Part shown: one piece after another, positions 4,125 to 41,297 of the stretch
Layout of the letters: each line of letters opens with the position of its first letter
Position numbering within the stretch: the first letter of the stretch is position 1
Translations under genes and position numbers: made by a program
Origin: a virus
Taxonomy: Duplodnaviria; Caudoviricetes
Direction: 5' to 3' (one strand)
IMG/VR virus record: IMGVR_UViG_3300029286_003722
Span: 1-43,136 of that record
DNA length: 43,136 nt
Notes under the pieces: generated by a model
Seen by the model: only the letters and a program-made list of their open reading frames with translations
What the model was told of the DNA's origin: nothing
The model's database searches: none

Positions 4125-4134
4125 TGCGTTCTCC

Positions 4135-5490: not shown

Positions 5491-6609
5491 TTATAGATGG
5501 ATCTCAAGTGTGTAGGTTGCCCTAGCCTCAATAGAATCGGCGGTGATGTTCACCTGCCGATATCCGCTTGCGTGTGACAGGTTCCATGAGTAGTCATCAT
5601 CGGGTGGCAACCTCTCATGGAAACTGATACGCTTCCAGGTGAATGATGAATCAGGAAGATCGTTGGTAACCTCTATCCCGTTGAGATACACATGGCCGTA
5701 CAGGGTCGTGGACATGGCCTCACCCGGCTTGAACACGTCCCCGTTGCTCGACTCGACCACCGTCACATACGCCTTGCCCTGCTCCCCCTGTGGGCCTGGA
5801 ACCTCAACACTGATGGTGATGAATCCGGTCTTCGTGTAATACATGGTGTCGCTGTACTGATACCTGAACCGGCACAGGAAAGACGCCGAATCATACACCA
5901 GATCCCCGTACGATACGGTGAGCGTTTTTCCCGTGGGGCTTTCCCTCCAGGAAGCATCCGCCTCACGGTCCTCGGAGACCCGCTCCCAGGTAAAACAGCT
6001 ATCGCCATACTCACTGGTGACATCCACCCCCTCACGGAGAAGCATAGCCGAAAGCGTCGATGGGGAGTTGTCAGCGGGAACCGTCTGGCCAGTCGAACTG
6101 GAGACCACCACCTCGAATTTGATCCGGGAATCCAAACCGCCGATCAGCCCGGTGGTGTACCGGAAGATCTGCTCCTCCACAAGGGAGGAAAGGCGGTAGT
6201 ACTCACTGAAGAGAGCCATCAGGGAATCGAAAGAAGTGATCTCGGTTCCGGTAGCCATATCCGCCAGAATATCCTCCAGGTTCGCCGTCAATTCCTGGTA
6301 TGCTGCCAGATACTCCAGGAACACGTCCTGATCGGAGATCCCATAGGATTCGGCTTTGGCCACAAGCACCGGATGGTTGGCCGAAATGACACTGGCTTCC
6401 CGTGCGAGCACAGATTTCTCAGAGGCCGTTATGTAGTTATCGGCTCCTATCTGCTCGAGCTGGCCCAGGATCGCCTTCGTGTCGCGCTTGATGAGCTGCG
6501 CATCGAGTTGCTGGCGGAACTCCTGGACAGTGTTCTTCTTCCCACCCTTGAGTTCGATGACCTCATCGACCAGGAGAGACCTTCCCGCGTTGTTGTATTG
6601 GTTGCTCAC
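5491..6609 (-). CDS. Tail fibre proximal/adaptor protein (372 aa)
   Basis: GTG at 6609 overlaps the upstream TGA, with a GGAGG RBS. Helical N-region, then two Ig-like repeats (FTWERVS / FTWKRIS) separated by GPQGEQG. Confidence 0.7.
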   Translation of the reverse strand: MSNQYNNAGRSLLVDEVIELKGGKKNTVQEFRQQLDAQLIKRDTKAILGQLEQIGADNYITASEKSVLAREASVISANHPVLVAKAESYGISDQDVFLEYLAAYQELTANLEDILADMATGTEITSFDSLMALFSEYYRLSSLVEEQIFRYTTGLIGGLDSRIKFEVVVSSSTGQTVPADNSPSTLSAMLLREGVDVTSEYGDSCFTWERVSEDREADASWRESPTGKTLTVSYGDLVYDSASFLCRFRYQYSDTMYYTKTGFITISVEVPGPQGEQGKAYVTVVESSNGDVFKPGEAMSTTLYGHVYLNGIEVTNDLPDSSFTWKRISFHERLPPDDDYSWNLSHASGYRQVNITADSIEARATYTLEIHL

Positions 6610-9600
6610 AGATCCCCTCCAAAAACCCGCTCTCCGAATTTTCCCCACTCGGAGTTGACCAGGTACAGGGGATTCATCTCCTGCACCGATTTGATGGCTT
6701 TCTTCCCGATCCCCGCTGGCAAGCCCACCACTTTTGCTCCCTCAAACATCAGGTCTCCGATCCGGTCAAGGATCTTCACATCGTCTCCCGTGGTCAAAGC
6801 CTGGAGCAATGAGCCAAGGGGAGCCGGAGAGACAATGCCGGATCCAGACCATCCGGAAACTCCTTCAGACACCACCGAGCCGATCATGGGCATGGTGTCC
6901 TTCACCAATTCCTCCAGCAGCGCACCTTGGATTTTCTTCCGTTCCTTTTCCTCATCATCATCCTTGTCAGGCAGGAATGCTCCGGAGATTGCCATCTGCA
7001 ATCCAATATTCAATGCCAGGGAGACGGTGGTTCCGATGATCCGCCTGGAGTCATGCTGTTTCCAGTAGTAGGGGATATCGTGCCACACCTGGTTGATGTG
7101 CTGCATCGTGTCATTTGAGAACATGAACATGAGGCGGAGCCAGGGATTCTTGTTCCGCTGGATCTCATTCAGATCGGTCGCATTGGTGACGCTCTGGGTC
7201 TCGGCGATAAACTGAGAGGCCCTGAAGGCGGCTTCCCTACTCAGCGCATCAACATCACTAGAAGACTTTTCGTTCTTCTTCAGATACGATTGGTAGGCCG
7301 ACAGCCACAGGACGTGTTTGATTGACATGTCCATCCATCCGAGATGCGCCATGCCGATATCGAGCGTCTTCTGGAGCCCCCGGCCTGCAGAGGTCTTGCG
7401 CTTGGCGGCTCTCATGCGTGCCACATCGATATCGAACGCCTGGTGCTTCAATTCGGGAGCTAGACTCTCAATGGTCGCGATGGCTTCCGCATGGCTTTCC
7501 CAGTTCATCAGTTGTGCAGTCGCCTTGAAATACCCGTACAGAGAGATATCACCCCTGAAGAGCGCGGAGACTGATCCTACTTGCCGGAACAGTGACGATA
7601 CGGAGAACGCAAGCGTGGCCCCGGAAGCAGTGGAGACAATTTTGTTCACCATCTGGTCCATATCGGATAGCACCAAATTCGGGGATCCCACATCATTCAC
7701 ATAGTTCTGGACAGCCTTGCTGTAGGAAGCTCCATACCGGTCAGAAATGATTCTTCCCAGTGCTCCCTTGTTGGATAGCATGAAATTCAAATCCCGTACC
7801 CATTGTGCCCAAGCTATGAAGTGTTCCTGTCGGCGGACGTTCTTTTCGAATATGTTTGTCGCATCCAATCGGAGCGCATATTTGGCCCAATGGTTTATGG
7901 CCTTGGTGAATCCCTTGTCGGTATACCGCACCGGGTCACCTTTTGGCCCAACCAGGAGATCCGTGTTGCCCTCGGTGGTTTTGTTCTCCGCCTCGAAGGT
8001 GAAGTAGTTCCGCCTTTTTCCAAGGCGTTTGTTATACACGCGGTAGAACACCTCGGCAAGCCTCTGCCAGTGCCCTTCCCCTCCCAGGGCGGAGATCAGG
8101 TATTCGGCATATCCCTTTTCCCTGTCAGTCAGCTTCCCAACCGCCTCGGAGAGCTGTTCGGGATTCAGCCGATTGCCAACCACCTGGTCGTAGAGCTTGA
8201 TGCAACCTTCCTCCTCCTTGGAGAAGATGTACAGTCCGATCACCTGATCCCGGGTGAGACTGATCCCATCACCCTTCCCGATCTTGCTTTTCACCACCGG
8301 CGAATAGGTGTAGATGATTTTCTGCAGGCTTTCATCGGAGATCCCGAGCTCGGTTCTTTTCTGTTTCCCTTCGGCAATCCTGGTATCCGCGTTCTGGAAT
8401 TCATGCTGCTGGTTGTAGTGCGCTTTTCTCACAAGCTGGTCATACAGCACCCCTTCCTTCTGTCCATCAAGAAGCCGAGCGATGCGCTGCATCTTGGTCC
8501 ACCAGGCATTGGCTGTCCTGAGTTCCTTTCCAAGACCGTCATCCTTGACCTTCCCCCCTACAGTGGAGAGGTTGTCGGTCAGGTCGTAAGAGACGGATGC
8601 GGAGCCGGAGATGGTGGGATCCACACCGATGGTCTGCTTGTAGTATGCGACCTCCACAGCATCCCTTCGGGCGCTCTGATCAAGCATCCGGCCATTGTGC
8701 ATGATCCTGGCATCCCTGCCCATCATCCGCACGCCCAGGACAAGATCCTCCATATCCTCGACAGTCCACTGCTCAAGTTTCAACCCGCCAATGAGCATGG
8801 ACATGATCGATGGATCCAGATACTGCTCCAACACCGACCGGTCTTGTTCCCACGGAGAGTGTACGGAATCATCCTCTTTCCGTGCCAGGTGCAGGGCTTC
8901 CTGGACCCAGTGGAACACCGGCTCATAGGATGCATCCATGGTTTCATCCACAAACTGGAGGTTCTTTCTCACCCGGGCCTGGAGATCCTCAATATTTTCC
9001 CTGAGCTTTCTGGCTCGGTCCCTCCGTTCCCAGGCCCTTACCGTATCCTCAAGGGAGCGGACATTCTGATTCTGTTCTGTCAACTGGGTTCTCAGGGTCC
9101 TCACCCTTTCACGGCGGTCGGCAAGATCCCTGGCCAACTGGGCCGCTTTCGAAGCCTTCGCTGATTTCGCATCGAGTTGGTTGGCCAGGGAGGAGGACCG
9201 ATTACGCTCATCCTGCAGATTGGTTCTCACGGCTCTCAACTCGAGGCTATATTTCCCCAATGCTTCAGTAGTGGCCTTCAGTTCCTGTCGGCCGGTATCC
9301 AGCTGTTTTCTCAGGCCCTCAATCTCCGCAAGGTGGGCTTTCCCCTGGGCCCTGAGCTCGGCGTCCGCCTGGAGCTCCATGGCGTAGACACCACGGTGGG
9401 TTGCCAACCGGTCCCTGGCATCGAAGCGCTGCTGTTTGTCGGCACTGGTCCGCAGGTACTTGGCAACCTCACTGTCGGTCATCTCATTTAGAGCCAATGG
9501 CGCTAGGATTTCCTCCATCTCCTCCCCAAGAGCATCGTAATAAGCGTCCCGGGAAGCATCTCCGCGGGGAAGAATGCCTTTGTACTCAAGGACCCGGTCC

Positions 9601-12600
9601 TGAGCCTCCTGGACAGTCTGCAGGGCCTTCCTGTAGGATCTGGGATCCTGCTCCACCAGCTTCCTGGCTTTTTCGATCTCGGCCTTGCTGCTGTTTTTCG
9701 ACAGGTTCTTGACAAACGTGGACACCCCTTTGAAAGCTCCCCACCTCCAGATTGTCAGGCGGTTGTCCTTGTCCCTTCTGTTTACGGTTGAGCTTTTGCG
9801 CTGGCCGATATCCTGATAGGCTTTCAGGTCGTTGCCCAACCGGATAAGGCTGTCATCATTTTTCGCATAGTCCCGTAGGAATGCCCTATCCATCTCCTCG
9901 GGGGATTTGATGCGCGAATATGCATAGATCCTCCGGTGCCACTGCTCATCCTCATCAGTCCAGTTGAATTCCTTGTTTGCTCCCTGGCCCTGGATGTATT
10001 CCAGGAAATCATCGGCATCCTCGAACTTCCGGGCCTCTTCCAATGCCCAGGGATATTTCCTTAGGTGCTCTCGGAAACGGATCTCATTGTCAGCCCAAGG
10101 CTCACCGGCATATTCCTGCAGGGTACTGTCGGATACCCAGAACATCCGCTCGACAGCGTTTTTAACATCCTCTTTGCGGTTTTCAAGATAGGACTCCCTG
10201 GCTTCCTTGGAAAGCTGGTAGAGACGGGGAGACGTGGACTTGACTTCCTGTTCTAGCTGGATTACATTCTTACCAGAAGCAGTGCGAATGCTGTCCGTAT
10301 AATAGATGATACGGAAAAGCGCGGACTCGCTTCTTTTTTTATCGACAGCCAATAACCGGCCTGTCGAAGCTATTTCAGACAGCCGACCGCCCTGTGCGTC
10401 TTTATCCCAAGGGAATACACTGCGGACGAAGGTTGAGGTCTCTCCATTTGGGGTTTCAACATTTTTCAAAGCAATCACCACCGGTGTCATTTCCCCTTTG
10501 AATCGCACCATCATATCAGTCACAAAAAGCAACGACCCTTTATTGTCAGGACTATCGGCAACGACTACCGCGACAGGGTTGTTGATGAATTCCTGTACCC
10601 GTCTCAAATGGTCGTCCGTGATACACCAGTTGTGGTTTTTCATGACATGGGCACGGAGAGAACCCATGGCCTGGATACCAGCGGATCTGATCTTGAATTC
10701 ATTGGGAACATCCAGATTCCAGTACCACGGCTGATAATCCGCAAGCCGGAATATCTTGCTGGCATGTGCGAGCCGCTCTTGCTCTGAGGCGAAATCCCCG
10801 CTGATCACCCGCTCCAATTCAGCGTTGTAGTCATCGACACCATCGGGGAGCTGGAAAAGACGGGAAGGCTCAGAAGATTCTATTCCATCCTCAGATTCCC
10901 AGTTGTCGACAGTTCCCACCTGGCTATCGTCGAACACGATATAGATGTCGTGGATCTCCCCGTCTTCCTCAACTCCACGCACAATCACCCCATCATGGTC
11001 TTTCTTTGCTTGCTGGATGATACGGGAAAGATCCTCAGTACCTGAGAAACTGGAAGACTCAATCTCAAGGGGATGCTCGATATTGAGATAGGCACCGATG
11101 ATTGTGGGGTCGCCGTCCTCGGAATCCTCGACCTCATTGAGGATATCCCAATAGCGTATCGCCCGTGGATCCTCCTGGACGTCCTGCGATGTGGTGCTCC
11201 GTCCTTCTTTCTTGAATTCAGCGGCGATAGCCATGGCTTCCTTGGAGAGATCCATCGACTCCGGACTTTTCGCCCTAGCGGCATAGCCTTCGGCAATATA
11301 CTTTGAGGATGTGAAGAAAAAACCCTCGCGCGCATCATCGGCATGGGTATTCAGCCCCAAATACTTTTCATCGAAGGAGGAGAATGCGGACGTGGATCCG
11401 TGGTAGACCAAGAGTGGTCTTCCATCACTGCCTAGTACCTTGGAATTACCGAATTCCTCCTGGAATTCCCTGGATCCGACAGGAGGAGCCTTCTGGAACA
11501 GCTTGACTTTGGAATCCCCATCATCTATCATTTCTGGTAGGCGATCTACCTGCAAATCCGGTTCATAGCTTGACGTCAGTCCGGAGGTGGCATCATTGAT
11601 GGTGCCACTGGGTAGATGATTCTCATCATAATAATAAGCAGTAACAAGCCATGTTCTCTTTTTCCCATCCCAATCCAGCCTTATTGCGGCTTTCGCATCT
11701 CTTGTCTCTATGTGGTATCGGTCCTTATAAGCGCGAACAACCCTTCCAGTCCGAATCAAGTCCGATAAATGGGAGAGAATCTCTGGATGCATTTCTTGTA
11801 TATGGGCCAGTCCATACCCTTTTTCACCGGCCCTTCCATATACGAAATCAATAGGCCCGATCTCTTCCCTTGTTATGGCGGCCGGGACGCTACCCTTCTT
11901 GACCTTAAGCAAATGCTCAATCGCTTCCTCTGGATGGTTCGAGTATTCGGGAAATTCCGGTTTGAAATCCTCTTGGTAGAGAATGCTTGGATTGTCGGTA
12001 CCAAACGCTCCATTGTTGTCTGTGGCGGATTTGATGAGATTCGGATTCAATATGATAGGCCAGCTGTTGAGAGGATCAATGAAGGCGTCTATTCCAGTTT
12101 CCAGAGAAAACTCAAGGTTTGTCTTATCGATGTCCTCTGAATCCCTCTGCAACTCCTTCAACTCAGCCGCATATTTGTTTTTGTTTCCGTAAGCCAACTC
12201 AAAACGTCTGACATTCAGGAATGCGTCATATCTTCTTTTGCCTAGATTTGAGCTGATTGCCCCGTATTGCTGTGGGGTAAAGAAAATTCCTTTGATGCCT
12301 GAACTCCTGCTGTGTGATGCCTTGAACACATCAATGCCTTCGATATCGGTGAAATGATACCAAACCCTCGGTTCACCATTCTCATCCACAACCTTGGAGG
12401 AATTGAACTTGCCTCTATCACGCAACAGTGATACTATGAGCTTGGAGGCTGGTGTTGAGCTATCACCCTTAAGTGAGGTGTCTTGAAGTGGCTCATCGCT
12501 CAGCTTCCTTTTTATATCCACCTCATGCAGATAATATTCAGACTTGTTCCCCTTGCTCTTATTCACGACAACTTCTGCAATGTATTCCTCATTCCCGATG

Positions 12601-15600
12601 ATAAGGGGAGCGGCAACAACAAGGGAGGTGTATCCCCGTCCCTTATAATCCTCTATTTCACTGAAAATCCTTCCGTTTTTGAGAACATCGGGGACAGCCA
12701 TGAAAGCAGAGGCTTTTATTCTCCCCAATCCATGGGATATGGACGCTTTGATACCATCTTCGGCAAGAATGATATTCCCAAGAGTGGCAGTTGAAACCAC
12801 GCCACCGTATTCCTTGGCATAGTATTCTGATACCCGTTTTGATAGGGATACGTTTTCTTTCTGGAACTCATTTCCTGTAAGCCTTGATACCGGATCGGCA
12901 TCCATCAGCCATTTGAAATTCTGAGCAGCTTCCCAATCCCCGAACCATTCCTTGAATGCAGGGGCCCTCACCAGTACCCATTGTCTTTCAGTGAGGTTGG
13001 TGGGCTTTCCGTTTGGGGCCTTGAGCCATTGATCAGTACCCTTGTACCGGGCAACAACGGCATCGTACTGCGCTTGTAAATCGCTGGAAATGTCGGATTG
13101 GAACAGATTGTCGCTCCGGTAGTTGAACCGCTTGGATGGAGGAACAATGTTGCCTTCCTCATCGCGGACCACCGTGTCATTGAGCTTCCTGTTGTTCTTG
13201 GTGTCTTTATATGCGTAGGAACCGCCATCGTCATAGCCGAGTTCGGCTATCGAGTTCACATCCCACCACACATGCTCTATTGGCACAGAATGGTAGATGA
13301 TGCGGTATCCTTCAGGAATCATTGCTCCTTCATTCTGTGCATAGGCCCTGTCAGGGGTGACCCAGTCGCCGTTTCGGAACATGTCTTCCTTGATATTTTT
13401 AGGGATCGCTCGGTATAGTCGAATCCTGGCTTTTCCGTTCTTCCTGTACCGGTCGATAGCATTCTTCACCTGCCAGAAGGATTCTCTCTCTCCTTCTCCT
13501 GTATACCAATTGGGATGGTCCCAATAATCCTTGGGTACAAGATCGGACTCTCCAAGCTTCGAGAGGTTCTCATCCTCACGGTTCGGAGCCTTATGGTTCA
13601 TTCTGAAGTCATTGTCTGATAGATACCCTTTTTTTCTGGCAATATCGTCGACAATCTTACGTGCAGCTTCCTCATCCCCGTTCTCGAGTGCCTTGAAATA
13701 TCGGTCGTCAGCGTTCTGGAACATCACATATCCATCAGGACCGACAGGGATCTCCTGTTGCATGGACTTGCCCTGCAGGATCCTGCCGAAAGAGGCCTTC
13801 ACCTCAGGGGACAGATCAGAGCCAGCGAACTCCATGAAACCCCTGAGGATATCACGCATCCTGCGGAACACCCGTTTCAATCCGGTCGTGGGGGCCTCTC
13901 CGGTACGGAGGTAGCGGACAAAATCATCCGCGAACCGCTCCTCGAACGGACGGACCACCGCCATGGCCTCTTCCTCATTTCCATAGGTTTTCCCGTCCAG
14001 GGTGAACGTGCCATCCTGGTTCCTGGACACGTCCTCAATCCACAGTGCTCCGCCATAATGGCCTTTGAACTCATCGACCAGCGTTCTGTCAGCCGTTCCC
14101 CGGACAAAATGTCCCAATTCATGGAGGACCGTGGAGGCATCGGCCTTGCGCCCCAGGTGGATGGTGTACTTCTTTTTACCGTCCTCCGTGACGTTATCGA
14201 TATACCCCCTTGCTGGGGTCTGTGTGTCCAGCACAAACCCAAGGCCCTGGGAAAGCATCTCATCCGTACCCATGTGGAGCGCCTCGGCCACCATGATCAC
14301 CGCATCGACATTGCTTTCCAACGCCACAGGAGAGACCCGTCCACCGGTATGGCTTACCAGATCCCCGATACTGCTCTTCACCAGCTTCCGCTCCTGGTAT
14401 TGAAGATATTTATCCTCACCCAGCAGGGATCTCTGCTGCGGGTTCAACTCAGCATCGAACGCCTGTTCTGGTTCGGTGATCTCCATCTTCTCGGAGGGGT
14501 TGGCTGTGGCCGTAATCTTCACCAGATCGCCACTGGAATCCCGCATGACCATCGTGACCAGGTCCCCTTCCCTGGTCACCGCTTCGGTGAACGGCTCGAA
14601 TGAGGCGACACCCTGTTCAAGGTCCTCCTCAGAGGAGAACACCACGACATCGCTGTCCCCCACACGTGCTCCCATGGTCCTGGCGGCATCGTTGACCAGC
14701 GACACATGGTCGCTGTCGTTCAGATATTCACCCTCCTCCACCACAACGTTCATGGCCGGGGCTCCCTGGAGTTTCGCCTGGGCGGCCTTGTCCATCTCCT
14801 CCTGGTTGATGGGAACCAGGCGTGATCCTATGTGGGCGACACGTACTGGCTCGATCTTCCCAACGGTCTTCTTATCAGGCTTCCCAGATCCAGTTTTTTC
14901 TTTCCCTTCCGGCTTTTCTTTCTTATTCGATTCATCGTAAGCGGTGAGGACATCCTTGGTGGGAACGGAGACAAAGGAACTGTCTATAGGGATTGATTTC
15001 TCCGTGGATTTGAACGTCTTGTTCGCATTCAGGCGCATCGTTGTGGAATAGACCCCTTGGCCAACTCCTGCTGTGATGAAGCTGGTAAGGAACATGCTTC
15101 TGGCGGCCTCGGTAGTAGCCTTTGCAGCTTCCTTGGCTACTTCTTCAATCGACTTTATCTCAAAGGATGCTCCCTCTTTGTTGGCCATGAATTGCAGTGC
15201 TGAGATATACCCATTCTCTAGGCTTTTCCCGATACCTTCCTCCAACGCCTCTCCCGCGTCACCTTTCGCTGTTTCCCACAGGAAGTTCTTCGATGCGTTG
15301 AGGAATCCCTTCTCCAACTGTTTGGACAGCTCCCGGGTTCCAAACGCGGCTTTCAGTTGTTTGTACCATGGGAACAGCTCCATGCTGCCCACCTCCACCA
15401 GACCTGAAGTGATTGCCAGTGCATGGAACAGCAATTGGGACTGTGTTGATTCCCAGGGAAGCCTATTGCCCTCCGAGTCCTCCATCTGCATCACGTTGTA
15501 CAGGGTGTTGCCCATTTGGGTATACCCGGAAGAAACCACGTTCATTCCGGTAGCGATGGCCTGGCCTGCGCCCGATATGGCTTTCGCGACAGCTGGTCCC

Positions 15601-16181
15601 CATGCCAGATTCGCCACACCTCCCGGGATCCAGGACAATAGAGCGGATGTGGCAATGAACTCTGCGGAGGAGAGAAGCGTCTGAACACTGTCCAGCCCCA
15701 GTTCTCCAAACTCCCCGTAATCATTCAGAATCGGATTGGATATGATCCTCCGCTGGTACTCCTCTGCATTCTTCAGGAAACCGGTATTCCCCGTTATCAT
15801 GTACAATGAGGTGTTCTTGCCGAGCATGCTGTTGCTCCAATACTCGGATGCTTTGGTTTTCAGTGCTTCCCAATAACTCTTGTCTCCCAGATCTATGCCG
15901 GACACCGAAGAGGCCAGACCCATATCGGACAGTTCAAATGCCTGGTCAAGATCCATGCCGATGTTGTTGAGCATGAGCGCGGTATCATACCTGGCGACAA
16001 CGCCATTGGGATCATCCGATTTCTGGATCGAGTCAAGAAGTGATCCCTTGAGCTTCCGTTCGATATCGAGCCACCCCATTGCGGGAGCATCCTGCTTGAA
16101 ATCCTTCATTGAATCAGGATTTCCCATCTTCATGAGCCGAAGGGTCTCGCTGTTTGCCAAAGCCTGTGAGTAATTGTCCAT
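6606..16181 (-). CDS. Giant internal virion (ejected) polyvalent protein, 3191 aa: HExxH metallopeptidase plus ART-like, LPD3-like, BECR-RNase-like and MuF-C-like domains
   Basis: Occupies the last internal-virion gene position. HELGH...EERFA motif at 14109-14123. ART-PolyVal-type motifs (SKVVDENGEPRVWYH; GRPLLVYHGS...GFFFTS). PBECR-type motif (IDFVYG...GYGLAHI...WLVTAY). Coiled-coil and helical C-terminal half. Confidence 0.85.
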   Translation of the reverse strand: MDNYSQALANSETLRLMKMGNPDSMKDFKQDAPAMGWLDIERKLKGSLLDSIQKSDDPNGVVARYDTALMLNNIGMDLDQAFELSDMGLASSVSGIDLGDKSYWEALKTKASEYWSNSMLGKNTSLYMITGNTGFLKNAEEYQRRIISNPILNDYGEFGELGLDSVQTLLSSAEFIATSALLSWIPGGVANLAWGPAVAKAISGAGQAIATGMNVVSSGYTQMGNTLYNVMQMEDSEGNRLPWESTQSQLLFHALAITSGLVEVGSMELFPWYKQLKAAFGTRELSKQLEKGFLNASKNFLWETAKGDAGEALEEGIGKSLENGYISALQFMANKEGASFEIKSIEEVAKEAAKATTEAARSMFLTSFITAGVGQGVYSTTMRLNANKTFKSTEKSIPIDSSFVSVPTKDVLTAYDESNKKEKPEGKEKTGSGKPDKKTVGKIEPVRVAHIGSRLVPINQEEMDKAAQAKLQGAPAMNVVVEEGEYLNDSDHVSLVNDAARTMGARVGDSDVVVFSSEEDLEQGVASFEPFTEAVTREGDLVTMVMRDSSGDLVKITATANPSEKMEITEPEQAFDAELNPQQRSLLGEDKYLQYQERKLVKSSIGDLVSHTGGRVSPVALESNVDAVIMVAEALHMGTDEMLSQGLGFVLDTQTPARGYIDNVTEDGKKKYTIHLGRKADASTVLHELGHFVRGTADRTLVDEFKGHYGGALWIEDVSRNQDGTFTLDGKTYGNEEEAMAVVRPFEERFADDFVRYLRTGEAPTTGLKRVFRRMRDILRGFMEFAGSDLSPEVKASFGRILQGKSMQQEIPVGPDGYVMFQNADDRYFKALENGDEEAARKIVDDIARKKGYLSDNDFRMNHKAPNREDENLSKLGESDLVPKDYWDHPNWYTGEGERESFWQVKNAIDRYRKNGKARIRLYRAIPKNIKEDMFRNGDWVTPDRAYAQNEGAMIPEGYRIIYHSVPIEHVWWDVNSIAELGYDDGGSYAYKDTKNNRKLNDTVVRDEEGNIVPPSKRFNYRSDNLFQSDISSDLQAQYDAVVARYKGTDQWLKAPNGKPTNLTERQWVLVRAPAFKEWFGDWEAAQNFKWLMDADPVSRLTGNEFQKENVSLSKRVSEYYAKEYGGVVSTATLGNIILAEDGIKASISHGLGRIKASAFMAVPDVLKNGRIFSEIEDYKGRGYTSLVVAAPLIIGNEEYIAEVVVNKSKGNKSEYYLHEVDIKRKLSDEPLQDTSLKGDSSTPASKLIVSLLRDRGKFNSSKVVDENGEPRVWYHFTDIEGIDVFKASHSRSSGIKGIFFTPQQYGAISSNLGKRRYDAFLNVRRFELAYGNKNKYAAELKELQRDSEDIDKTNLEFSLETGIDAFIDPLNSWPIILNPNLIKSATDNNGAFGTDNPSILYQEDFKPEFPEYSNHPEEAIEHLLKVKKGSVPAAITREEIGPIDFVYGRAGEKGYGLAHIQEMHPEILSHLSDLIRTGRVVRAYKDRYHIETRDAKAAIRLDWDGKKRTWLVTAYYYDENHLPSGTINDATSGLTSSYEPDLQVDRLPEMIDDGDSKVKLFQKAPPVGSREFQEEFGNSKVLGSDGRPLLVYHGSTSAFSSFDEKYLGLNTHADDAREGFFFTSSKYIAEGYAARAKSPESMDLSKEAMAIAAEFKKEGRSTTSQDVQEDPRAIRYWDILNEVEDSEDGDPTIIGAYLNIEHPLEIESSSFSGTEDLSRIIQQAKKDHDGVIVRGVEEDGEIHDIYIVFDDSQVGTVDNWESEDGIESSEPSRLFQLPDGVDDYNAELERVISGDFASEQERLAHASKIFRLADYQPWYWNLDVPNEFKIRSAGIQAMGSLRAHVMKNHNWCITDDHLRRVQEFINNPVAVVVADSPDNKGSLLFVTDMMVRFKGEMTPVVIALKNVETPNGETSTFVRSVFPWDKDAQGGRLSEIASTGRLLAVDKKRSESALFRIIYYTDSIRTASGKNVIQLEQEVKSTSPRLYQLSKEARESYLENRKEDVKNAVERMFWVSDSTLQEYAGEPWADNEIRFREHLRKYPWALEEARKFEDADDFLEYIQGQGANKEFNWTDEDEQWHRRIYAYSRIKSPEEMDRAFLRDYAKNDDSLIRLGNDLKAYQDIGQRKSSTVNRRDKDNRLTIWRWGAFKGVSTFVKNLSKNSSKAEIEKARKLVEQDPRSYRKALQTVQEAQDRVLEYKGILPRGDASRDAYYDALGEEMEEILAPLALNEMTDSEVAKYLRTSADKQQRFDARDRLATHRGVYAMELQADAELRAQGKAHLAEIEGLRKQLDTGRQELKATTEALGKYSLELRAVRTNLQDERNRSSSLANQLDAKSAKASKAAQLARDLADRRERVRTLRTQLTEQNQNVRSLEDTVRAWERRDRARKLRENIEDLQARVRKNLQFVDETMDASYEPVFHWVQEALHLARKEDDSVHSPWEQDRSVLEQYLDPSIMSMLIGGLKLEQWTVEDMEDLVLGVRMMGRDARIMHNGRMLDQSARRDAVEVAYYKQTIGVDPTISGSASVSYDLTDNLSTVGGKVKDDGLGKELRTANAWWTKMQRIARLLDGQKEGVLYDQLVRKAHYNQQHEFQNADTRIAEGKQKRTELGISDESLQKIIYTYSPVVKSKIGKGDGISLTRDQVIGLYIFSKEEEGCIKLYDQVVGNRLNPEQLSEAVGKLTDREKGYAEYLISALGGEGHWQRLAEVFYRVYNKRLGKRRNYFTFEAENKTTEGNTDLLVGPKGDPVRYTDKGFTKAINHWAKYALRLDATNIFEKNVRRQEHFIAWAQWVRDLNFMLSNKGALGRIISDRYGASYSKAVQNYVNDVGSPNLVLSDMDQMVNKIVSTASGATLAFSVSSLFRQVGSVSALFRGDISLYGYFKATAQLMNWESHAEAIATIESLAPELKHQAFDIDVARMRAAKRKTSAGRGLQKTLDIGMAHLGWMDMSIKHVLWLSAYQSYLKKNEKSSSDVDALSREAAFRASQFIAETQSVTNATDLNEIQRNKNPWLRLMFMFSNDTMQHINQVWHDIPYYWKQHDSRRIIGTTVSLALNIGLQMAISGAFLPDKDDDEEKERKKIQGALLEELVKDTMPMIGSVVSEGVSGWSGSGIVSPAPLGSLLQALTTGDDVKILDRIGDLMFEGAKVVGLPAGIGKKAIKSVQEMNPLYLVNSEWGKFGERVFGGDL

Positions 16182-16189
16182 GAGGACTC

Positions 16190-19100
16190 CTATAGTCTTT
16201 CCCTGGGACTGTCAGAGGCGATCCCAAGGAGGTTCATGCGGTATTTCTGGATATCTGCCATAAGGGTGTCGAGCTCTTCTCTTTTTGCATCCCGGCTATC
16301 GACAATCCCACGGGTGGCGGGGTATAGCTGTTGGGCTCTCGTCGACTGGTAACTGTTCCCATCTCCTGCGTTCTTGCTCACACTGTCGTAAGTGGCGAGT
16401 CTTTTCTGGAAAATAGGATCAGACACCTGGCGGTTCAGGTCGGACAATTCGTAGGTGAGCTGTGGATCCACATACGATTTGAACACGATGAGATTCTTCA
16501 GAGCACTGTCGTCTCCAGTGAACATGCCCCAGCCCAGGGTACCGCGGTTTTTCGCATCGATATCGACAGGAAGGTAATACGCACTGTGATTCTGTGGATC
16601 CTGGTATGCCCACATTCTTCCCGTGACCTTCATGTCAGAGGGATGGACGCCAAAGGATCCTTCCAGAGCCTTCTCATATATCCTTGAAGAAGCGACAAAG
16701 TTCACGTTCGCCAACACCTCGAGCTTGTCGAACGATGTCCCCTTCTCCTGAAGCTCTTTGTACGTGCTGTAAGGGGAGAACTCTTTGGTGAACTCATCGA
16801 GCATCTTGTCGTTGGACAGATTGCGCAGCCTATACAGACTGTTCGCCTTGTCCCAATTGATCAGCAGATCGTAATCTCCATCCGAGACACCTTTCATGAA
16901 GGTCACGAAATCACCGTCATCGAAGTGGCCCAGTAGCTTGTCCACATCGCCCTCGGTCACCATTTTGGAGATTCCCGTCAGATTCTTGAGGAATCCTTTC
17001 GCGGTGGAATTCTGTGCGAACGATCTGAGCTGTATCTGCAGTTTGCCGAAATTCTCTCCAAGCAGTGAGGGATCCCGGGTTACGGCCCGTTCAGCCGCAT
17101 CGGTCAGCTCGTTGGTGAGGTAGGTCCTTTCGATTCCCGCTCCAGATCTATCCTTATAGATGGATCCAACAATCTCCTTGATGGATGTCTTCAGAACATC
17201 CGCATTGCCCAGATCGACAAATTTCCGATGGGTGGAGAGTGGCTCCCCAGTCTCGGCTCTGAGCAATCCTGCTGAGACAAAACCGCTTACCACCTGTTTG
17301 AGCGTGTCAGGCAGAACAGTTGCATCGCTTCTCAGACCATCCACAAAGGCCAGTACCGTTGGATCATCCACCACCAGAGTGTCAGTGGATCCAGCCATGG
17401 AGGAGATCTGCTGCCGGGTATCGTCGTTTTTAATCCAGGTGAGCATCTCCTGGGTGATTGAGGATCCTTCCCCGCTCTTGATCCTCTGGAACATCCCGCC
17501 GATCAGCGATTCCTGGGACATCCCCTTCTGGATGGGCGTGGTGCTCTGGGAACCCCCTGCCACAAGTTCTCCCCCTGCTTTCGCCTGGACGGCTTCCAAC
17601 TCCTCATTGGCCTTCCTTTCCCGGGAACCGATCAATCTGAGTTGGGCGTGTCCTGCTTCTGTCCTGTCAGCCCACAGCTGTTCCTGCACCGCATTGGCCT
17701 GCTGGGAGACAATCTCCCTGGCCACGGCGTTCTGGATCTCAGCATCGACCGGAGTCTTGTCCTTCTGCGGTCCCCTCTCCCCTTTTACCGTGTCCTGGGT
17801 GGGAACGGTCTCCTGAATCTCCGCTTCTGGAGATTCGGCCGCTGTCTCCCCGCCCCCGTTCGGGTCAAATGAGAACTTCGGCATTTGGAGAGAGAATGAC
17901 GGTTTACCGGCAAGGAACCGCACTACATCCTGTTTGTGTTCCTCCAGGTAGGCTTCCCCCTCTTTCCCATACCGGACACTATCGATGGGTGGAGCTTCTG
18001 CAAGGGCTGACTCGACAATGGGAGCGATATCCACATCCCCCACCATGACCGGCTCTGCCTGGGAAGACTCCCCCACAGTCTCCATCATCAGCTTGACCAC
18101 AGCGTCCACATCCCCCTGGCTGTCCAGATATTCCTTGGTGAGCCGCGCCACCGCATCGTTGCGGTTCTTCTGGGACATGGGACCTGTATTCTTTACAATG
18201 GACTCCCTGGCCTTGACCAGGGTCCCTCCAGAATGGATGATCCTGTTTCCCTCGTTGACCAGGGCCTGCTCATAGACCTTGTCGCGCTTGGTGGGATCAT
18301 GGATTTGCTCCACAACTCCCCAATCCTCAGTGGAGAACACTTTCCCATTATCCAGTTCCTTGAATATGGCTTGAGAGATCAGCACGTCATTGTTCGCCAC
18401 CGCCGTGTTCCGAGTCTTGTACAGCTCCAGCTGGTGCCGCCGTGGGACAGAGGGAATCAGACTGTCGATCGACTCAGGATCGAACACCTGGCCTTGTGTC
18501 TTGGCGCTTTCCACCTGGGTGAGGATCTCATTGTTTGTCTGGGTGAAGTTCTCATCCACGTTGGTGTCGAACTGTTTCCTCCACGTGGTGACGGCCTTCA
18601 CATAGGATGCGCTCTGTTTCGCGTCCAGCCCATAGGATCCCGCGATCTCCTTGGCCTTCGCATCGAAATCAAAGGAAGTATCCGCATAAGAGGCGGAGTA
18701 TGCGTTTTGGATATCCTGCGCGGCTTTGGCTGGAGCCGCACTGTAGCGGAAATCCTTTACCTTGCTGGCGATCATGCTATCCGTGTATGGGGTGTTGAGC
18801 ACCAGAAACGCGCTGTAGTCCCTTACCGCTGAGTCAAGATCGGCATCATTGGCGATGATCAAATTGCCCTTGTCCTCGATATCGGCCTCCAGCATCTTCA
18901 TGCGCCCGTTGGTGGCCTGGATGGAGGCCTTGGAGGCCACGGTACTCTTCAGTTGTGGCAGGGTGTTCTCCAGCAGATCCTTTTTAGCCAGATCCCCCAG
19001 CGTGCTGTCCGAGGATATCTCCGCGGCGAAAGTGCCGAACTGATCCTCAACCTCTTTCCCGTACGCATCGAAATCCGTGCTGTATTGCAGGTTGTTCAGG

Positions 19101-19285
19101 AACTCATTCGAACGGTTCACCAGATCGGTGTTCTTCCGGTCTGCCTCTGTCTTGGCCAGTGAGGCTTTCAGCTGGTCATCCAGCTGCTTGTGCTTTCCAA
19201 TTGTTTCCACCGCATTGAACGTGGTATCAACCAACGTGCTGACCCCTTCCTGGATCTGCCCCGCCACAAACGATCTGACTCCCAT
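16190..19285 (-). CDS. Internal virion protein (1031 aa)
   Basis: Large helical ORF between the small pilot-like protein and the giant protein, matching podovirus ejectosome synteny. AAGGAG RBS. Confidence 0.7.
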   Translation of the reverse strand: MGVRSFVAGQIQEGVSTLVDTTFNAVETIGKHKQLDDQLKASLAKTEADRKNTDLVNRSNEFLNNLQYSTDFDAYGKEVEDQFGTFAAEISSDSTLGDLAKKDLLENTLPQLKSTVASKASIQATNGRMKMLEADIEDKGNLIIANDADLDSAVRDYSAFLVLNTPYTDSMIASKVKDFRYSAAPAKAAQDIQNAYSASYADTSFDFDAKAKEIAGSYGLDAKQSASYVKAVTTWRKQFDTNVDENFTQTNNEILTQVESAKTQGQVFDPESIDSLIPSVPRRHQLELYKTRNTAVANNDVLISQAIFKELDNGKVFSTEDWGVVEQIHDPTKRDKVYEQALVNEGNRIIHSGGTLVKARESIVKNTGPMSQKNRNDAVARLTKEYLDSQGDVDAVVKLMMETVGESSQAEPVMVGDVDIAPIVESALAEAPPIDSVRYGKEGEAYLEEHKQDVVRFLAGKPSFSLQMPKFSFDPNGGGETAAESPEAEIQETVPTQDTVKGERGPQKDKTPVDAEIQNAVAREIVSQQANAVQEQLWADRTEAGHAQLRLIGSRERKANEELEAVQAKAGGELVAGGSQSTTPIQKGMSQESLIGGMFQRIKSGEGSSITQEMLTWIKNDDTRQQISSMAGSTDTLVVDDPTVLAFVDGLRSDATVLPDTLKQVVSGFVSAGLLRAETGEPLSTHRKFVDLGNADVLKTSIKEIVGSIYKDRSGAGIERTYLTNELTDAAERAVTRDPSLLGENFGKLQIQLRSFAQNSTAKGFLKNLTGISKMVTEGDVDKLLGHFDDGDFVTFMKGVSDGDYDLLINWDKANSLYRLRNLSNDKMLDEFTKEFSPYSTYKELQEKGTSFDKLEVLANVNFVASSRIYEKALEGSFGVHPSDMKVTGRMWAYQDPQNHSAYYLPVDIDAKNRGTLGWGMFTGDDSALKNLIVFKSYVDPQLTYELSDLNRQVSDPIFQKRLATYDSVSKNAGDGNSYQSTRAQQLYPATRGIVDSRDAKREELDTLMADIQKYRMNLLGIASDSPRERL

Positions 19286-19294
19286 GATGTCTCC

Positions 19295-20065
19295 TTAAAA
19301 ATATGAGTCGAGTTGCGCTCCGCTAGCCAATCCCCCGAACAATCCTCCGAAGAGGTCGGTTGTCGCGCCGAATTGCATCGCGCTCTTTCCCTTGGTCTGC
19401 AGGTATTCGAGATCGGAGGCAAGATAGCCTCCCTGGAGATTGTAGCTGTCCGTTGTCTGGTCCATCTGAAGCTGCAATGCCTCAAGCTGGCGGTCGGTAT
19501 CGGTCTGGTTCTGCTCGATTTTCCGATTGTATGAGGCCACCCGCTGGTTGGCATCGGTATAGGTGCTCACCGCTGAGGCGTAGGTCTGGTACTTGGACAG
19601 GTCGCTTTGCATCCTTGCCTGTGCCATGGCATCATCGGCAGAACTTTGGGTGTTCTTCACCACATTCTTCGCGGTGCCGGTTCCCCTAAAGCCGCTGGTC
19701 GCTGCGGCCTGGTTGGCCGCTCCGACAGACTGCTCGTTCTGCACCGCCAGCGTGGCGATCTGCGCCGCATCGAGCTGGCTCTGCATGCCCCCCGATGTGG
19801 CGGTCTGTTTGATCGCCATATCCCGGTTGGCAAGTGTCTCATCGGCAAGCAGTCCCAGTTCCTTGTTCGTGTCGGCCAGTGAGTCCTTGGCCTGGTCCAC
19901 CGAGAGGCTGTAACTGTCCTTGGCCTGGGAATACTGCTGGTTCAGCTGTTCCTTGGAACGGTTCAGCTCCTCCACCTTGTCCTGGTACTCGGCATTCCTG
20001 GAATTCGCACTGGCGATGCCCTTCGCGAGACCGCCGATCAGACCAAGAGCCAATAAAACGCTCAT
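19295..20065 (-). CDS. Internal virion/pilot protein (T7 gp14-like position)
   Basis: Hydrophobic Gly-rich N- and C-termini with a Q/A-rich coiled coil. Directly follows tail tube B. Confidence 0.7.
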   Translation of the reverse strand: MSVLLALGLIGGLAKGIASANSRNAEYQDKVEELNRSKEQLNQQYSQAKDSYSLSVDQAKDSLADTNKELGLLADETLANRDMAIKQTATSGGMQSQLDAAQIATLAVQNEQSVGAANQAAATSGFRGTGTAKNVVKNTQSSADDAMAQARMQSDLSKYQTYASAVSTYTDANQRVASYNRKIEQNQTDTDRQLEALQLQMDQTTDSYNLQGGYLASDLEYLQTKGKSAMQFGATTDLFGGLFGGLASGAQLDSYF

Positions 20066-21669
20066 CAACCTACCTCCATCGTCAACACCATCGCGAGGAT
20101 GGTCAGAGGAGCGTCCCCCACCGAGCGGATCTCCATTCTCAGCTCCTTCTCATACCCACCCCCGATATTCATCGGGACGTCGCCTTCCTCTATGGCTCCA
20201 TTGAAGGATTCCAGGCCACTGTACCCGGCCCTGAAAGGACCGCTGTCCAATAGCCTGAGGGTCACCCGGCTGATGCGCTTGTACTTGCCGATGCTGGATC
20301 CGCTTTGCAGCTGGGCCTCGATACGGTTGCCACGCAGGATCGAATCGAAGGGAATCGGGCTGTCGGTGTTGTGCTGGTCGCTATGGACATCCGAGTCCTC
20401 ATCGAACCGCTCAAGACAGTGGATCCCGTTGCGGTTGATGGCCATGCACACCTCCTGCCCGCCCGGTGTGTCGGTGACCGCCACGGACTCTACCAGGCCG
20501 CCAAAGGTCCACCGGGTCCAGGCCTGCAGGCCATAGAGCTTGTTGTAGGAAAGCACCGCCATGGTTCCATCGTTGAGCACACAGTACACCCTGGGCTCAG
20601 GAACCCGTTGGAATGTCCATTCCTTCACCCCACTGGCCAGCACGTGGTCGGCGATGTAGGTCATGTCGGGAGAGCTGTACCCATCGGAGGAGTACACATA
20701 GCCCCTGCACCGCTTGCGTCCGCTTTGGATGAACAGGATGTCCTCGTTAGCGTTCACGGCCTGCAAGGGTGCGGATCCATAGGCCGAGCTCTGCACGATG
20801 GACTGGTTGAGCGCATCGATGTTGCCAGGCATGATCCACTCACCGCTGGCCGTGCCCACCACCAGGTTCTGCCCCACGGTCAGCCACTCGATGCGGTCGT
20901 TCCGGTTGGATCCGACCTCGAGCACCATGGCGTTGTCCGCGCTGGTGACATCCCTGGTGGTCGTCTGCTCCTCATAGATCAGGCTCTGGTCCTCTTCCCA
21001 CCCCTCTGGCCAGGGTGCGTCCTTGATCACCTTCTCCTTGGTGGTCACCACATCGAACGTGGTGAAATCATGGGTCACGAAGGGTCTTGAGGCCCACAGC
21101 CTATACGGATGGTTATCCGATGAGGCGAACCACAGCCGGTTCGCACAGTAGGCGACACACCCGGGATAGTTGCCCGTCCCCTGGAACAATGAGGGATAGT
21201 GGCTGTCGGTGGTGGGCACCAGGGTGGACCAGGTGAAGGATCCCCCCAGGTAGGTCAGCATCCTGGGCGCATGGGAGCGGTGTGCGAGATACAGTGTCTG
21301 GTAATCCTGGGTGAACTGGACCTGGGACAGCTGGCCCTGCGTGTAGGGTATGGGGATCGCATCCACACTGAGGCCTTCCCACAGTAGCGGAAAAGGTGCC
21401 CCATCGGCATACTTGATGGACATCAGGCTAGGATGCAGTTCGATGATGAATGAGAGATCCACGCTGATGGTGAACGGAATGATCCTGCAGGGATCCGACA
21501 GAGTGCCTAGTAGGACCGTGCCAGGCCTTCTGGTCGCCCCACCCTGCAGCATGAGCAGGAAGTTCTCGATATGGGACGCTCCACTCTGGTATGCTGCCAG
21601 GTCATACCTTCCACCGAGTTTCGGAGAGACCTCGCCGGAGGTGAAATTGTTCACCAAGAGGTCACTCAT
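20065..21669 (-). CDS. Tail tubular protein B / nozzle
   Basis: N-terminal NNFTSGEVSP...R.DL..Y...NFL...QGGATRRPGT, plus YPGCVAY..NRLWF. Typical of the podovirus nozzle family. Confidence 0.85.
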   Translation of the reverse strand: MSDLLVNNFTSGEVSPKLGGRYDLAAYQSGASHIENFLLMLQGGATRRPGTVLLGTLSDPCRIIPFTISVDLSFIIELHPSLMSIKYADGAPFPLLWEGLSVDAIPIPYTQGQLSQVQFTQDYQTLYLAHRSHAPRMLTYLGGSFTWSTLVPTTDSHYPSLFQGTGNYPGCVAYCANRLWFASSDNHPYRLWASRPFVTHDFTTFDVVTTKEKVIKDAPWPEGWEEDQSLIYEEQTTTRDVTSADNAMVLEVGSNRNDRIEWLTVGQNLVVGTASGEWIMPGNIDALNQSIVQSSAYGSAPLQAVNANEDILFIQSGRKRCRGYVYSSDGYSSPDMTYIADHVLASGVKEWTFQRVPEPRVYCVLNDGTMAVLSYNKLYGLQAWTRWTFGGLVESVAVTDTPGGQEVCMAINRNGIHCLERFDEDSDVHSDQHNTDSPIPFDSILRGNRIEAQLQSGSSIGKYKRISRVTLRLLDSGPFRAGYSGLESFNGAIEEGDVPMNIGGGYEKELRMEIRSVGDAPLTILAMVLTMEVG

Positions 21670-22201
21670 CACGGCGCTCCTGGCGGTTGTTGTGGCACTC
21701 GGCAGAGATCAGGCCATTGAGCGCCCAGGTGTATTTCTGCAGGACCGCCTGGTCGGTTTTACCCTCGGGAGCCAGCATAGAGGCGATCTGGAACGCCAGA
21801 GCGTAGGCGATCAGCTCATAGAAGTCCTCTGGCACTCCCAGAAGAGGCATATCCTGCATCACCCCATATACGGTGGGATTTTCTGCATCGGTGTACAGCC
21901 TCCCCCCGGTCACAAGGTAGGGTAAATCATAGGATGCGTGGACCAGCTTCAGCAGATTGGTGGGGAGCAGGTACCCATGGGAAAACCCATGGCCTCCACC
22001 GTCATCGTCGGCCAGATCCACGTCAATCTTTACAAGAAGAAACGACCAGTCGAACTCCCTCATCGCCTTGCGTTTCGCCATCGGCAGGAACTGCCTGCAT
22101 AGACGCACCTCTTTTGCGGGGGACGTAGCATCCAGATCGGACTGCGCGAGTTGTTTGTCAAACTGGGACAGGGCAAGGTTGAAAAGCTCCAGATCGGTCA
22201 T
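21662..22201 (-). CDS. Tail tubular protein A / adaptor
   Basis: MTDLELFNLALS...REFDWSF...LLP...F.ELIAYALA pattern. ATG at 22201 with GGAG RBS. Confidence 0.8.
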   Translation of the reverse strand: MTDLELFNLALSQFDKQLAQSDLDATSPAKEVRLCRQFLPMAKRKAMREFDWSFLLVKIDVDLADDDGGGHGFSHGYLLPTNLLKLVHASYDLPYLVTGGRLYTDAENPTVYGVMQDMPLLGVPEDFYELIAYALAFQIASMLAPEGKTDQAVLQKYTWALNGLISAECHNNRQERRDE

Positions 22202-22214
22202 CTCAACTCCACTG

Positions 22215-22235
22215 ACAAAGGGGGCCGAAGCCCCC
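22215..22235 (-). terminator. Intrinsic terminator after head genes (probably leaky)
   Basis: GGGGGC-TTCG-GCCCCC followed by TTTGT on the minus strand. Confidence 0.7.
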
Positions 22236-22252
22236 ATTCTGATTCGAGAGGC

Positions 22253-22417
22253 CTAGGCCTCATCCTTCTTCTTCGATTTCACTGGAGCGGCCTTGCTGAC
22301 CGGCTCCAGGAACTCCTCTACGACCGATGTTCCGGCTCCCACCGTGATGGTTTCGCCCTTACGTAGGAAATTGCCGTTGTAGTAGCAATCCCTTTTCGCG
22401 CGGTAGACGTCCCCCAT
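22253..22417 (-). CDS. Small head-associated protein (54 aa; absent from ORF track)
   Basis: MGDVYRAKRDCYYNGNFLRKGETITV...KKKDEA*. Fills the gap between the cement gene and the terminator. Confidence 0.7.
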   Translation of the reverse strand: MGDVYRAKRDCYYNGNFLRKGETITVGAGTSVVEEFLEPVSKAAPVKSKKKDEA

Positions 22418-22418
22418 A

Positions 22419-22871
22419 TCACAGCGGCCTCACCGCACCGAACACAGCGCCCTTGATGAAATCGTAGGTGCTGGCATTGACCAGATCGATCTGGACATGC
22501 TCCTTGCACTTGTCAGGCAGAGCCTGCTTCACCAGGATCACACCTTCCTTCAGGCTGGCCAGTGCGAAAGTCTCACTGGTGAACAGTGTCTCCCAGGTCC
22601 CTGCAGCGCCGGTCGCGCTGGTTTTGACCTTGATCGCCAAGGTCGGGGCATGGGGGGTGATCACCTCGGGGTTCTCCCCCTCTGCGGGAGTAACGGTCTG
22701 TCCAGCGGTCGCGGTAGCAGCCACGAAGATCTCCAGGACCTCATTGGTCTCCACCATCTGGTTCTTGAACCCGAAATCGATATCCTGACCGCTCACGGTC
22801 TCCCCTCCCTCCACGGGAAGCAGGGGTTGCACGACGGGATTGAACGCCGCGCGGGTTTTCTCAAAGATCAT
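22419..22871 (-). CDS. Capsid cement/decoration protein (Bbp16-like)
   Basis: 150 aa beta-rich protein directly after the major capsid gene. AGGAGG RBS. Confidence 0.6.
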   Translation of the reverse strand: MIFEKTRAAFNPVVQPLLPVEGGETVSGQDIDFGFKNQMVETNEVLEIFVAATATAGQTVTPAEGENPEVITPHAPTLAIKVKTSATGAAGTWETLFTSETFALASLKEGVILVKQALPDKCKEHVQIDLVNASTYDFIKGAVFGAVRPL

Positions 22872-22882
22872 CTGATCACCTC

Positions 22883-23899: not shown

Positions 23900-23912
23900 T
23901 CTAGCCTCCTAT

Positions 23913-24659: not shown

Positions 24660-24678
24660 CGCTATTCTCCTTATCCGG

Positions 24679-24954
24679 TCAATCGACCGGTTTTTTCCAT
24701 TCGTGATCCTCCAGCATCCATTTCAACAGTGGGATCAGGGACTCCCCATCCAGGAGCCCAAGATCCTCCATCAAGCGGATACCGAAATTGTGCAGTGCAA
24801 TCATGCCTGGATCGGCGGCTACCTGGTCAAAAACCCCACACTCCCGCACAATACGCGCCAGTTCGTACGTTCCTTCCTCTGTCCGGTAGACGTTTTTAAG
24901 GAAATTCCGCTTGCTCAGGATTTCCTTTGTGACCTGTTGCCTGCTGTCTATCAT
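24679..24954 (-). CDS. Bbp19-like small protein
   Basis: 91 aa directly after the portal, with a VYRTEEG..EL..I...C pattern. Confidence 0.6.
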   Translation of the reverse strand: MIDSRQQVTKEILSKRNFLKNVYRTEEGTYELARIVRECGVFDQVAADPGMIALHNFGIRLMEDLGLLDGESLIPLLKWMLEDHEWKKPVD

Positions 24955-26621: not shown

Positions 26622-26673
26622 AACCTGATTGAAACATATTCATGAAAACACCGTGGTTCTGTGGGAACCGTGA

Positions 26674-39742: not shown

Positions 39743-40027
39743 GTTCTTCAGGATGGAGATTTATCTATGCTCTATGTAGTATGAGAGGAGCCTTCGCAAC
39801 AATGATAAATCAAATATCCGTTGGTTTTGGCATTGATATTAAAGATAATTTAGCTAATATTTTATCACTTGAAAAACCGGGAGAAATAAAACTGTAAATT
39901 CCATGTGAGGCTAGATATTGAGGACCTGTCCAACAGAAAATAATAACCTATTACTATAACTTTCTTGGCTTATAATTGGGATGTATCTTTCTCAACAATA
40001 AAGGTGTACAACATTTTAGGAAATAAA

Positions 40028-41287: not shown

Positions 41288-41297
41288 AGGATAACAA

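Follow-up and report, generated by a model that had tools for sequence, protein, structure and literature searches.

A recurring [LM][FY]Q motif at the module junctions of a giant phage polyvalent protein, a candidate cleavage site for its embedded zincin

Introduction

The polyvalent proteins described by Iyer et al. in 2017 (PMC5512222) are encoded among virion genes and carry metallopeptidase (MPTase), ADP-ribosyltransferase (ART), PBECR1, MuF-C and LPD3 domains within one polypeptide. The same paper proposes that these domains are released by the MPTase, in the manner of viral polyproteins, and cites the processed DdrB protein of phage P1. The present work concerns a protein of this kind, 3191 aa long, which is encoded by a 43,136-nucleotide viral DNA (IMG/VR record IMGVR_UViG_3300029286_003722, positions 1 to 43,136), the whole of which is referred to below as the window. 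In this protein, five modules are bounded by six copies of a short motif, [LM][FY]Q, which is predicted to be the site at which the embedded peptidase cuts the chain.

DdrB/DarA of P1 is likewise a head-packaged multidomain protein that contains an MPTase and is reported to be proteolytically processed; it differs in undergoing one processing event before packaging, in belonging to a myovirus, and in that the available text of PMC5512222 describes no repeated motif in it. The gene slot of the window protein is also that of two internal virion proteins D (IVP-D) of the Epsilon15 group, namely Bbp10 of Bordetella phage BPP-1, listed as such in Table 2 of PMC4819975, and gp16 of Pseudomonas phage AF. 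These proteins, both from cultured phages, differ from that of the window in length (~2050-2200 aa), in having few recognisable motifs, and in a peptidase that follows the variable part; the comparison covered the peptidase region only, which gave weak tblastn matches to both (E 1e-4 to 6e-4). FYQ or LNQ is found 31-39 aa before the HExxH in Bbp10 (L035, 4685-10843) and AF gp16 (L036, 4076-10717).

In the polyproteins of picornaviruses and potyviruses, embedded 3C-type cysteine proteases cut at LFQ- or YFQ-like sites, releasing unrelated enzymes. By analogy, the window protein would resemble these systems in its single embedded protease, its repeated short sites and the motif itself, but its enzyme is an HExxH zincin, and the glutamine is replaced in about half of its relatives (by S, A or R). 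Because the enzyme is not a cysteine protease and the glutamine is replaceable, the likeness to 3C sites appears convergent or accidental.

A preliminary description, made from the sequence of the window, had put the protein forward as an undescribed system. This is too strong, as both the family and the idea of MPTase processing date from 2017 (PMC5512222): the giant protein is a typical representative of a known family, and the new part is the motif code together with its in-step change. The main text of Iyer et al. (PMC5512222) contains no match for the word 'linker', and the available text names no recurring junction motif or cleavage site; the supplementary alignments may show such a motif. 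The available part of PMC9144972 holds nothing on processing, and a literature search that lacked most subscription papers turned up no description of such a motif.

Results and Discussion

Six motifs delimit five modules

The elements of the giant gene are given below in the order in which they are translated.

6606..16181 (-): open reading frame (ORF) of the giant polyvalent protein, 3191 aa and 359 kDa (ORF, gene order, computed mass)
14403..16181 (-): conserved N-terminal part (chassis), aa 1-593; homologues are colinear with it at 30-46% identity
13785..14231 (-): zincin-like MPTase, aa 651-799, with HELGH at 14109-14123 and the third-ligand helix EERFA at 13929-13943
13716..13724 (-): junction motif 1, MFQ, aa 820-822 (pattern scan)
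13107..13715 (-): cassette 1, aa 823-1025, a widespread uncharacterised domain (homologue matches, phrog_2579)
13098..13106 (-): junction motif 2, LFQ, aa 1026-1028 (pattern scan)
11982..13097 (-): cassette 2, aa 1029-1400, with a lead segment, LPD3 (aa 1112-1212) and an ART-PolyVal domain (Pfam PF18798 and PF18760, homologous units)
11973..11981 (-): junction motif 3, LYQ, aa 1401-1403, closing a conserved ART tail (pattern scan)
11502..11972 (-): cassette 3, aa 1404-1560, PBECR1, a predicted RNase (PF18809, aa 1435-1519)
11493..11501 (-): junction motif 4, LFQ, aa 1561-1563 (pattern scan, exchange breakpoints)
10860..11492 (-): cassette 4, aa 1564-1774, ART-PolyVal (PF18760, aa 1586-1760, E 2.3e-21)
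10851..10859 (-): junction motif 5, LFQ, aa 1775-1777 (pattern scan)
10224..10850 (-): cassette 5, aa 1778-1986, MuF_C, of the BECR fold (PF18819, aa 1849-1952)
10215..10223 (-): junction motif 6, LYQ, aa 1987-1989, opening the C-terminal chassis (pattern scan)
6606..10214 (-): conserved C-terminal part (chassis), aa 1990-3191, with 31-39% identity to 5 full-length homologues

The six motifs lie where the preliminary description had placed them, beginning at aa 820, 1026, 1401, 1561, 1775 and 1987, and its spacings of 206, 375, 160, 214 and 212 aa are all correct, as are HELGH at aa 687 and the EERFA that follows it, at aa 747. Its statement that the motif is absent from the rest of the 3191 aa also holds, even when the pattern is widened to [ILMV][FY]Q, and the apparent domain boundaries that it had noted agree with the Pfam annotation, in which no domain contains a motif. 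The five cassettes that it had counted are indeed five motif-bounded units; they nevertheless hold six domains, since unit 2 includes both LPD3 and an ART domain, which no motif separates.

Matches to LPD3, ART-PolyVal, PBECR1 and MuF_C all exceed the Pfam cut-offs, with PF18760 matching the protein in two stretches. Cassette 3 has a 58% identical motif-to-motif counterpart in the homologue P0007, and no homologue of cassette 5 was present among 548 candidates. The five units are lower in GC (0.46-0.52) than the two ends (0.54-0.55), and neither chassis gave a family or PHROG match. Sequence matches to biotin carboxylase and EsxA were taken as chance, and the Atlas comparison returned unnamed clusters only. 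The label of anti-host effectors given to the cassettes comes from their family names and may be read as a prediction.

Only 0.27 occurrences of [LM][FY]Q would be expected in aa 687-2000, and none of 20,000 shuffles reached five (maximum 4). The post-hoc choice of pattern was corrected for by scanning all three-class patterns from 21 residue groups; [LM][FY]Q ranks first among these, but 1 of 60 shuffles yielded an equally extreme pattern. With the choice of pattern thus allowed for, the evidence of the single sequence amounts to ~p 0.03 and is no more than suggestive; it is the homologues that decide the matter. Chance, or some structural property of the adjoining domains, is an extremely improbable origin for the motif. 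This reading could draw on the shuffle frequency and on one model in which motif 1 is helical, but the motif is conserved at homologue joints, occurs after unrelated folds, and varies with the protein that hosts it, not with the domain.

The preliminary description had proposed a check on whether the motifs lie in inter-domain linkers. They do insofar as none is inside a Pfam domain, and hydrophobic residues are scarcer in the 14 residues preceding 33 motifs (0.195) than in the background (0.31); the structure models do not agree on motif 1, which is coil with a predicted local distance difference test (pLDDT) score below 50 in one and helix at ~65 in the second, where motif 2 lies within a block of pLDDT 52.

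Modules are exchanged at the motif among relatives

Eight homologues share both chassis ends with the window protein and differ between them, and in the seven close ones the motif is found at the joints, so that its conservation at the junctions of homologues is borne out. The sixth motif has the form L[YF]QLS in 12 of the 12 chassis homologues used. Among 12 chassis homologues, 413 local-alignment ends were counted, and 170 of them are no more than 5 aa from a motif, compared with 4.5% for uniform positions; the alignment pairs behind these ends are not independent, and the motif itself slightly anchors alignment ends. Cassette gain and loss at the motif, which the preliminary description had suggested looking for by alignment, is therefore visible in these block ends.

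Individual pairs illustrate the exchange. Unit 1 is first in the window protein, third in P0010 and later in P0002, always running from motif to motif. P0002 and L020, which are 96% identical, differ in one 197-aa unit, and P0007 and L026 differ in the PBECR1 unit; in both pairs the breaks lie a few residues past a motif. Where L026 lacks the PBECR1 unit, two motifs remain, 10 aa apart. The genome G133 carries three copies of the giant gene (L022, L023 and L026), two of them in tandem, with different cassettes.

The interiors of ART units vary among homologues as well. The earlier idea that the motif is the junction for cassette exchange is thus sound as to position, but the motif is no conserved DNA site, and exchange also takes place away from it.

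The motif is conserved as a peptide

Across 33 motifs in seven genes, all six leucine codons and both glutamine codons are used, at close to gene-wide frequency. This synonymous variation indicates that the motif is a peptide-level signal under selection rather than a conserved recombination site. An integron-like, site-specific DNA cassette array was likewise ruled out by the synonymous variation in the 33 motifs and by the unrelated codons that flank them.

These data also bear on the possibility that the motif is a functionless footprint of accretion, in which each insertion duplicates the end of a linker and the joints match by descent or gene conversion. Such a process would account for n modules being accompanied by n+1 motifs, for the single LFG of the cassette-free paralogues described below, for the 10-aa remnant with two motifs in L026, and for a lean of the middle codon toward C-ending forms (TTC or TAC in 27 of 33, vs 19.7 expected). 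Yet the residues are fixed while their codons vary synonymously; the three motif residues are kept between proteins only ~40% identical, whose flanks cannot be aligned; and one type of ART tail ends in LFQ, RYS or RFA depending on the host protein. A footprint of this kind is decidedly unlikely.

The form of the motif changes in step within proteins

The wider family of proteins that contain unit 1 was examined after 120 sequences had been dereplicated at <85% identity to 72. Cassette 1 ends in an aromatic-centred motif in 69 of the 72, of the form x[FY]Q in 30, x[FY]S in 31, R[FY]R in 4 and another form in 4. The same form tends to recur on the other side of the cassette: of the 30 Q proteins, 23 have an [FY]Q in the 22 aa upstream, and of the 31 S proteins, 26 have an [FY]S there.

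The agreement extends to the rest of each protein. Elsewhere in the chain, the Q pattern occurs 141 times in Q proteins (71.7 expected) and 66 times in S proteins (79.5 expected), and R[FY]S occurs 13 times in Q proteins (23.9 expected) and 60 times in S proteins (21.9 expected). Among 21 ART-type tails not adjacent to cassette 1, eight are Q tails in Q proteins (one being that of the window itself), eight are S tails in S proteins, and one is an RFA tail in an RFA protein; of the remainder, two (LHQ and IRKS, each agreeing with its own protein) received no aromatic call and two are false pattern matches. Rare forms also recur within single proteins, with RFA found four times in P0031 and YHQ three times in P0054. 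Since unrelated modules of one protein carry the same form, a factor specific to the protein appears to set the motif.

The embedded peptidase is one candidate for this factor. On a tree of 39 peptidase sequences, Q and S are separated by 2 changes, compared with 11.8 for shuffled labels. The unit-1 tree requires 6 Q/S changes on 61 rows, 2 when restricted to the 39 rows of the peptidase tree, and on 37 rows it splits Q fully from S, with a support of 100 on one side. A single incongruence between the trees has a p-AU of 0.014, for a group picked after the trees had been viewed. By these trees, exchange of modules thus takes place mostly inside motif classes, but the trees cannot tell the peptidase from common descent as the cause.

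The predicted peptidase

His94, Glu95 and His98 of the HExxH, together with a downstream Glu155, are invariant in all 24 aligned peptidase rows. The model of this region contains strands at 54-58, 66-73 and 76-83 and helices at 89-103 and 143-167, with pLDDT values of 80-97 for the three strands and the HExxH helix. Structural comparison gave PprI (Z 5.1, rmsd 3.1, 79 aligned), ArdC (Z 5.0, 5.5, 110) and lethal factor (Z 5.0, 5.3, 131), which are of the right class, yet a Z of ~5 falls within the background range. The model has no Foldseek match in the PDB at E<=0.001, and a match to SprT-like proteins is weak (E 2.5e-3). Catalytic activity is presumed from these sequence and model features.

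In proteins whose peptidase follows the modules, a Q motif is present 30-31 aa upstream of the HExxH in 6 of 11 cases. The motif thus often borders the peptidase as well, as in Bbp10. A Fisher test was set aside, its rows being related and those with no upstream motif having been left out. No residue separating Q-type from S-type peptidases was seen by eye in the peptidase alignment, and a search of viral contigs with the peptidase found no locus.

Cleavage by the embedded zincin and its alternatives

In the window protein, a peptidase-bearing N-terminal part and a C-terminal part, both fixed, frame five swappable modules, and it is reasonably probable that the motif is the site at which the predicted zincin would cut in cis. 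The alternatives that remain to be weighed concern what reads the motif, if not this peptidase.

First, the motif might be an uncleaved binding signal, such as a docking or pause site recognised by the chassis or a partner ejection protein during packing of the unfolded chain in the head or its passage along the tail. Such a signal would account equally well for the protein-level conservation and the in-step change, and it would tolerate degenerate joints. It could also cite the virion RNA polymerase (vRNAP) of phage N4, which bears an MPTase and is packaged whole (PMC5512222). However, the motif also flanks the peptidase on the side that faces the modules, the catalytic residues are invariant, and modules with different targets would remain tethered to one another. 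A binding signal is therefore unlikely.

Alternatively, the motif might be cut by another protease, from the host or the phage head. Between portal and capsid lies a gene for a 248-aa protein that matches phrog_458, a family labelled 'protease' (E 2.9e-10), and the form of the motif could track host lineage. Conversely, the 248-aa protein (23913-24659, -) reads, in our judgement, as a low-complexity scaffold in the scaffold slot; the capsid and the scaffold lack the motif, and the other window proteins are not enriched in it (5 vs 2.9); and an intact peptidase is present in cis. Cleavage by such an enzyme is quite unlikely.

Several points weigh against cleavage by the embedded zincin itself. 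The MPTase-bearing proteins ArdC and TraC1, like N4 vRNAP, are packaged or transferred whole (PMC5512222). A profile finds the peptidase in only 39 of the 72 cassette-1 relatives, although most of the others have an HExxH, and the co-variation of motif and peptidase may reflect shared ancestry, because Q and S are told apart just as well on the cassette tree. The homologue rows are related, so counts taken over them are not independent. The five other window proteins that contain [LM][FY]Q (2.9 expected, no enrichment) imply that three residues alone cannot confer specificity, and motif 1 is helical in the second model. Some exchange bypasses the motif: behind the conserved lead of unit 2, homologues may have LPD3 or lack it, with no motif there, and an extra unit in L033 starts without one.

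The motif is also imperfect at some joints. The first junction is degenerate, being LKQ in the lineage of P0002, L020, L032 and L033, LFE in L026, LYD in L025, and not recognisable in P0015. In L025 (G245; 2836-aa ORF, aa 750-1600), which belongs to the same chassis family, the joints read LYD, LYS and LFS; its L[FY]S joints mark an independent switch from Q to S. Finally, the cassette-free paralogues L027-L029 (~1900-2300 aa) have an intact HExxH and a single DLFG between the peptidase linker and the C-terminal part, that is, LFG rather than LFQ.

Proposed mechanism

If the motif is a cleavage site for the zincin, the giant chain would be packaged in the virion and then ejected, and the peptidase would cut it at the six motifs into seven pieces of 90, 24, 42, 18, 24, 24 and 137 kDa. 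Cutting would free the ART, RNase/BECR-fold and uncharacterised modules to act against host defences early in infection. Both timings, in the head or in the host cell, are compatible with this proposal. Since the aromatic is the nearly invariant position, the bond before F/Y would be a first guess, by analogy, and that after Q a second; some zincins read the residue after the cut.

The modules themselves would move by ordinary or microhomology recombination, and selection would likely retain those products in which a module is flanked by a motif that the resident peptidase accepts. A more tentative extension, to which we give somewhat less than even credence, is that the zincin of each lineage reads its own aromatic-centred motif (LFQ, RYS, RFA or YHQ), with which all modules would be tagged, such that a private cleavage code gates the acquisition of modules from a shared pool.

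Cassette 1

Cassette 1, a domain of high conservation, matches at least 2564 giant proteins. It has no Pfam match, and aligns to phrog_2579 with an E of 4.5e-23. Its model possesses a confident core with no Foldseek match in the PDB at E<=0.001; a row for KptA, at E 3.4, is non-significant, and cassette 1 failed to align with the ART cassette (probability 0.1). The model offers a weak lead to an ADP-ribosyltransferase-like fold, which cassette 1 may possibly have. Among its residues, the invariant YR..., NGDW and E-G-D are suggestive of an enzyme.

Genomic setting and host

Two further groups of genes define the position of the giant gene.

16190..20068 (-): two genes upstream of the giant gene, 1031 aa and 257 aa (gene position)
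20065..28742 (-): podovirus morphogenesis genes for tail tube B and A, major capsid, a scaffold-like protein, portal, and terminase large and small subunits (Pfam, PHROG)

The morphogenesis genes match Pfam GP7, Head-tail_con and Terminase_6C and PHROG 376, 394, 6299 and 458. Read leftward, the order is terminase, portal, scaffold-like protein, major capsid, two tail-tube genes, the 257-aa gene, the 1031-aa gene, the giant gene and tail genes, which we take to be the ejection-protein trio arrangement of T7/epsilon15-type podoviruses. The 1031-aa and 257-aa genes, placed between the tail-tube genes and the giant gene in an order that matches L001 and phages AF and BPP-1, presumably encode the first two ejection proteins. 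By gene order and Pfam and PHROG matches, the giant gene is the last of this internal-virion (ejection) trio; it is also the largest of the three genes that separate tail tube from tail fibre, an IVP-D-type position. From this gene slot, the giant protein is presumed to be packaged and ejected with the DNA.

Domains of unrelated biochemistry occur in one chain, the gene is located among virion genes, and domain content varies among relatives, all features of polyvalent proteins; the domain content and gene neighbours thus bear out the earlier placement of a polyvalent protein in the virion module.

The nearest homologues carry names from Sphaerochaetaceae, and 14 of 258 genomes of that family's order give matches, so the host is probably in Sphaerochaetaceae. 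The virus is a podovirus, and probably a temperate one. A divergent 124-aa ORF (39052-39426, +) ahead of the leftward early genes is, by position only, a likely temperate-phage repressor. The region 39965-43136 (+), low in GC (25-32%) and encoding an N6/N4 DNA methylase and a DndB-like protein, probably represents either host DNA or a defence island adjoining the prophage. At the other end, a 903-aa ORF (1935-5478, -) shares ~510 bases with a 447-aa tail ORF, and its true start is probably near 'MAVVGVG', at ~aa 175.

Implications

A defined motif makes the 2017 proposal of cargo release by the MPTase testable. The motif also sets exact borders for modules of unknown function such as cassette 1, and so provides a route to cataloguing early anti-defence factors. 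If the private code is real, the motif could serve to divide thousands of giant proteins into their effectors, and a set of sequence-specific proteases would become available.

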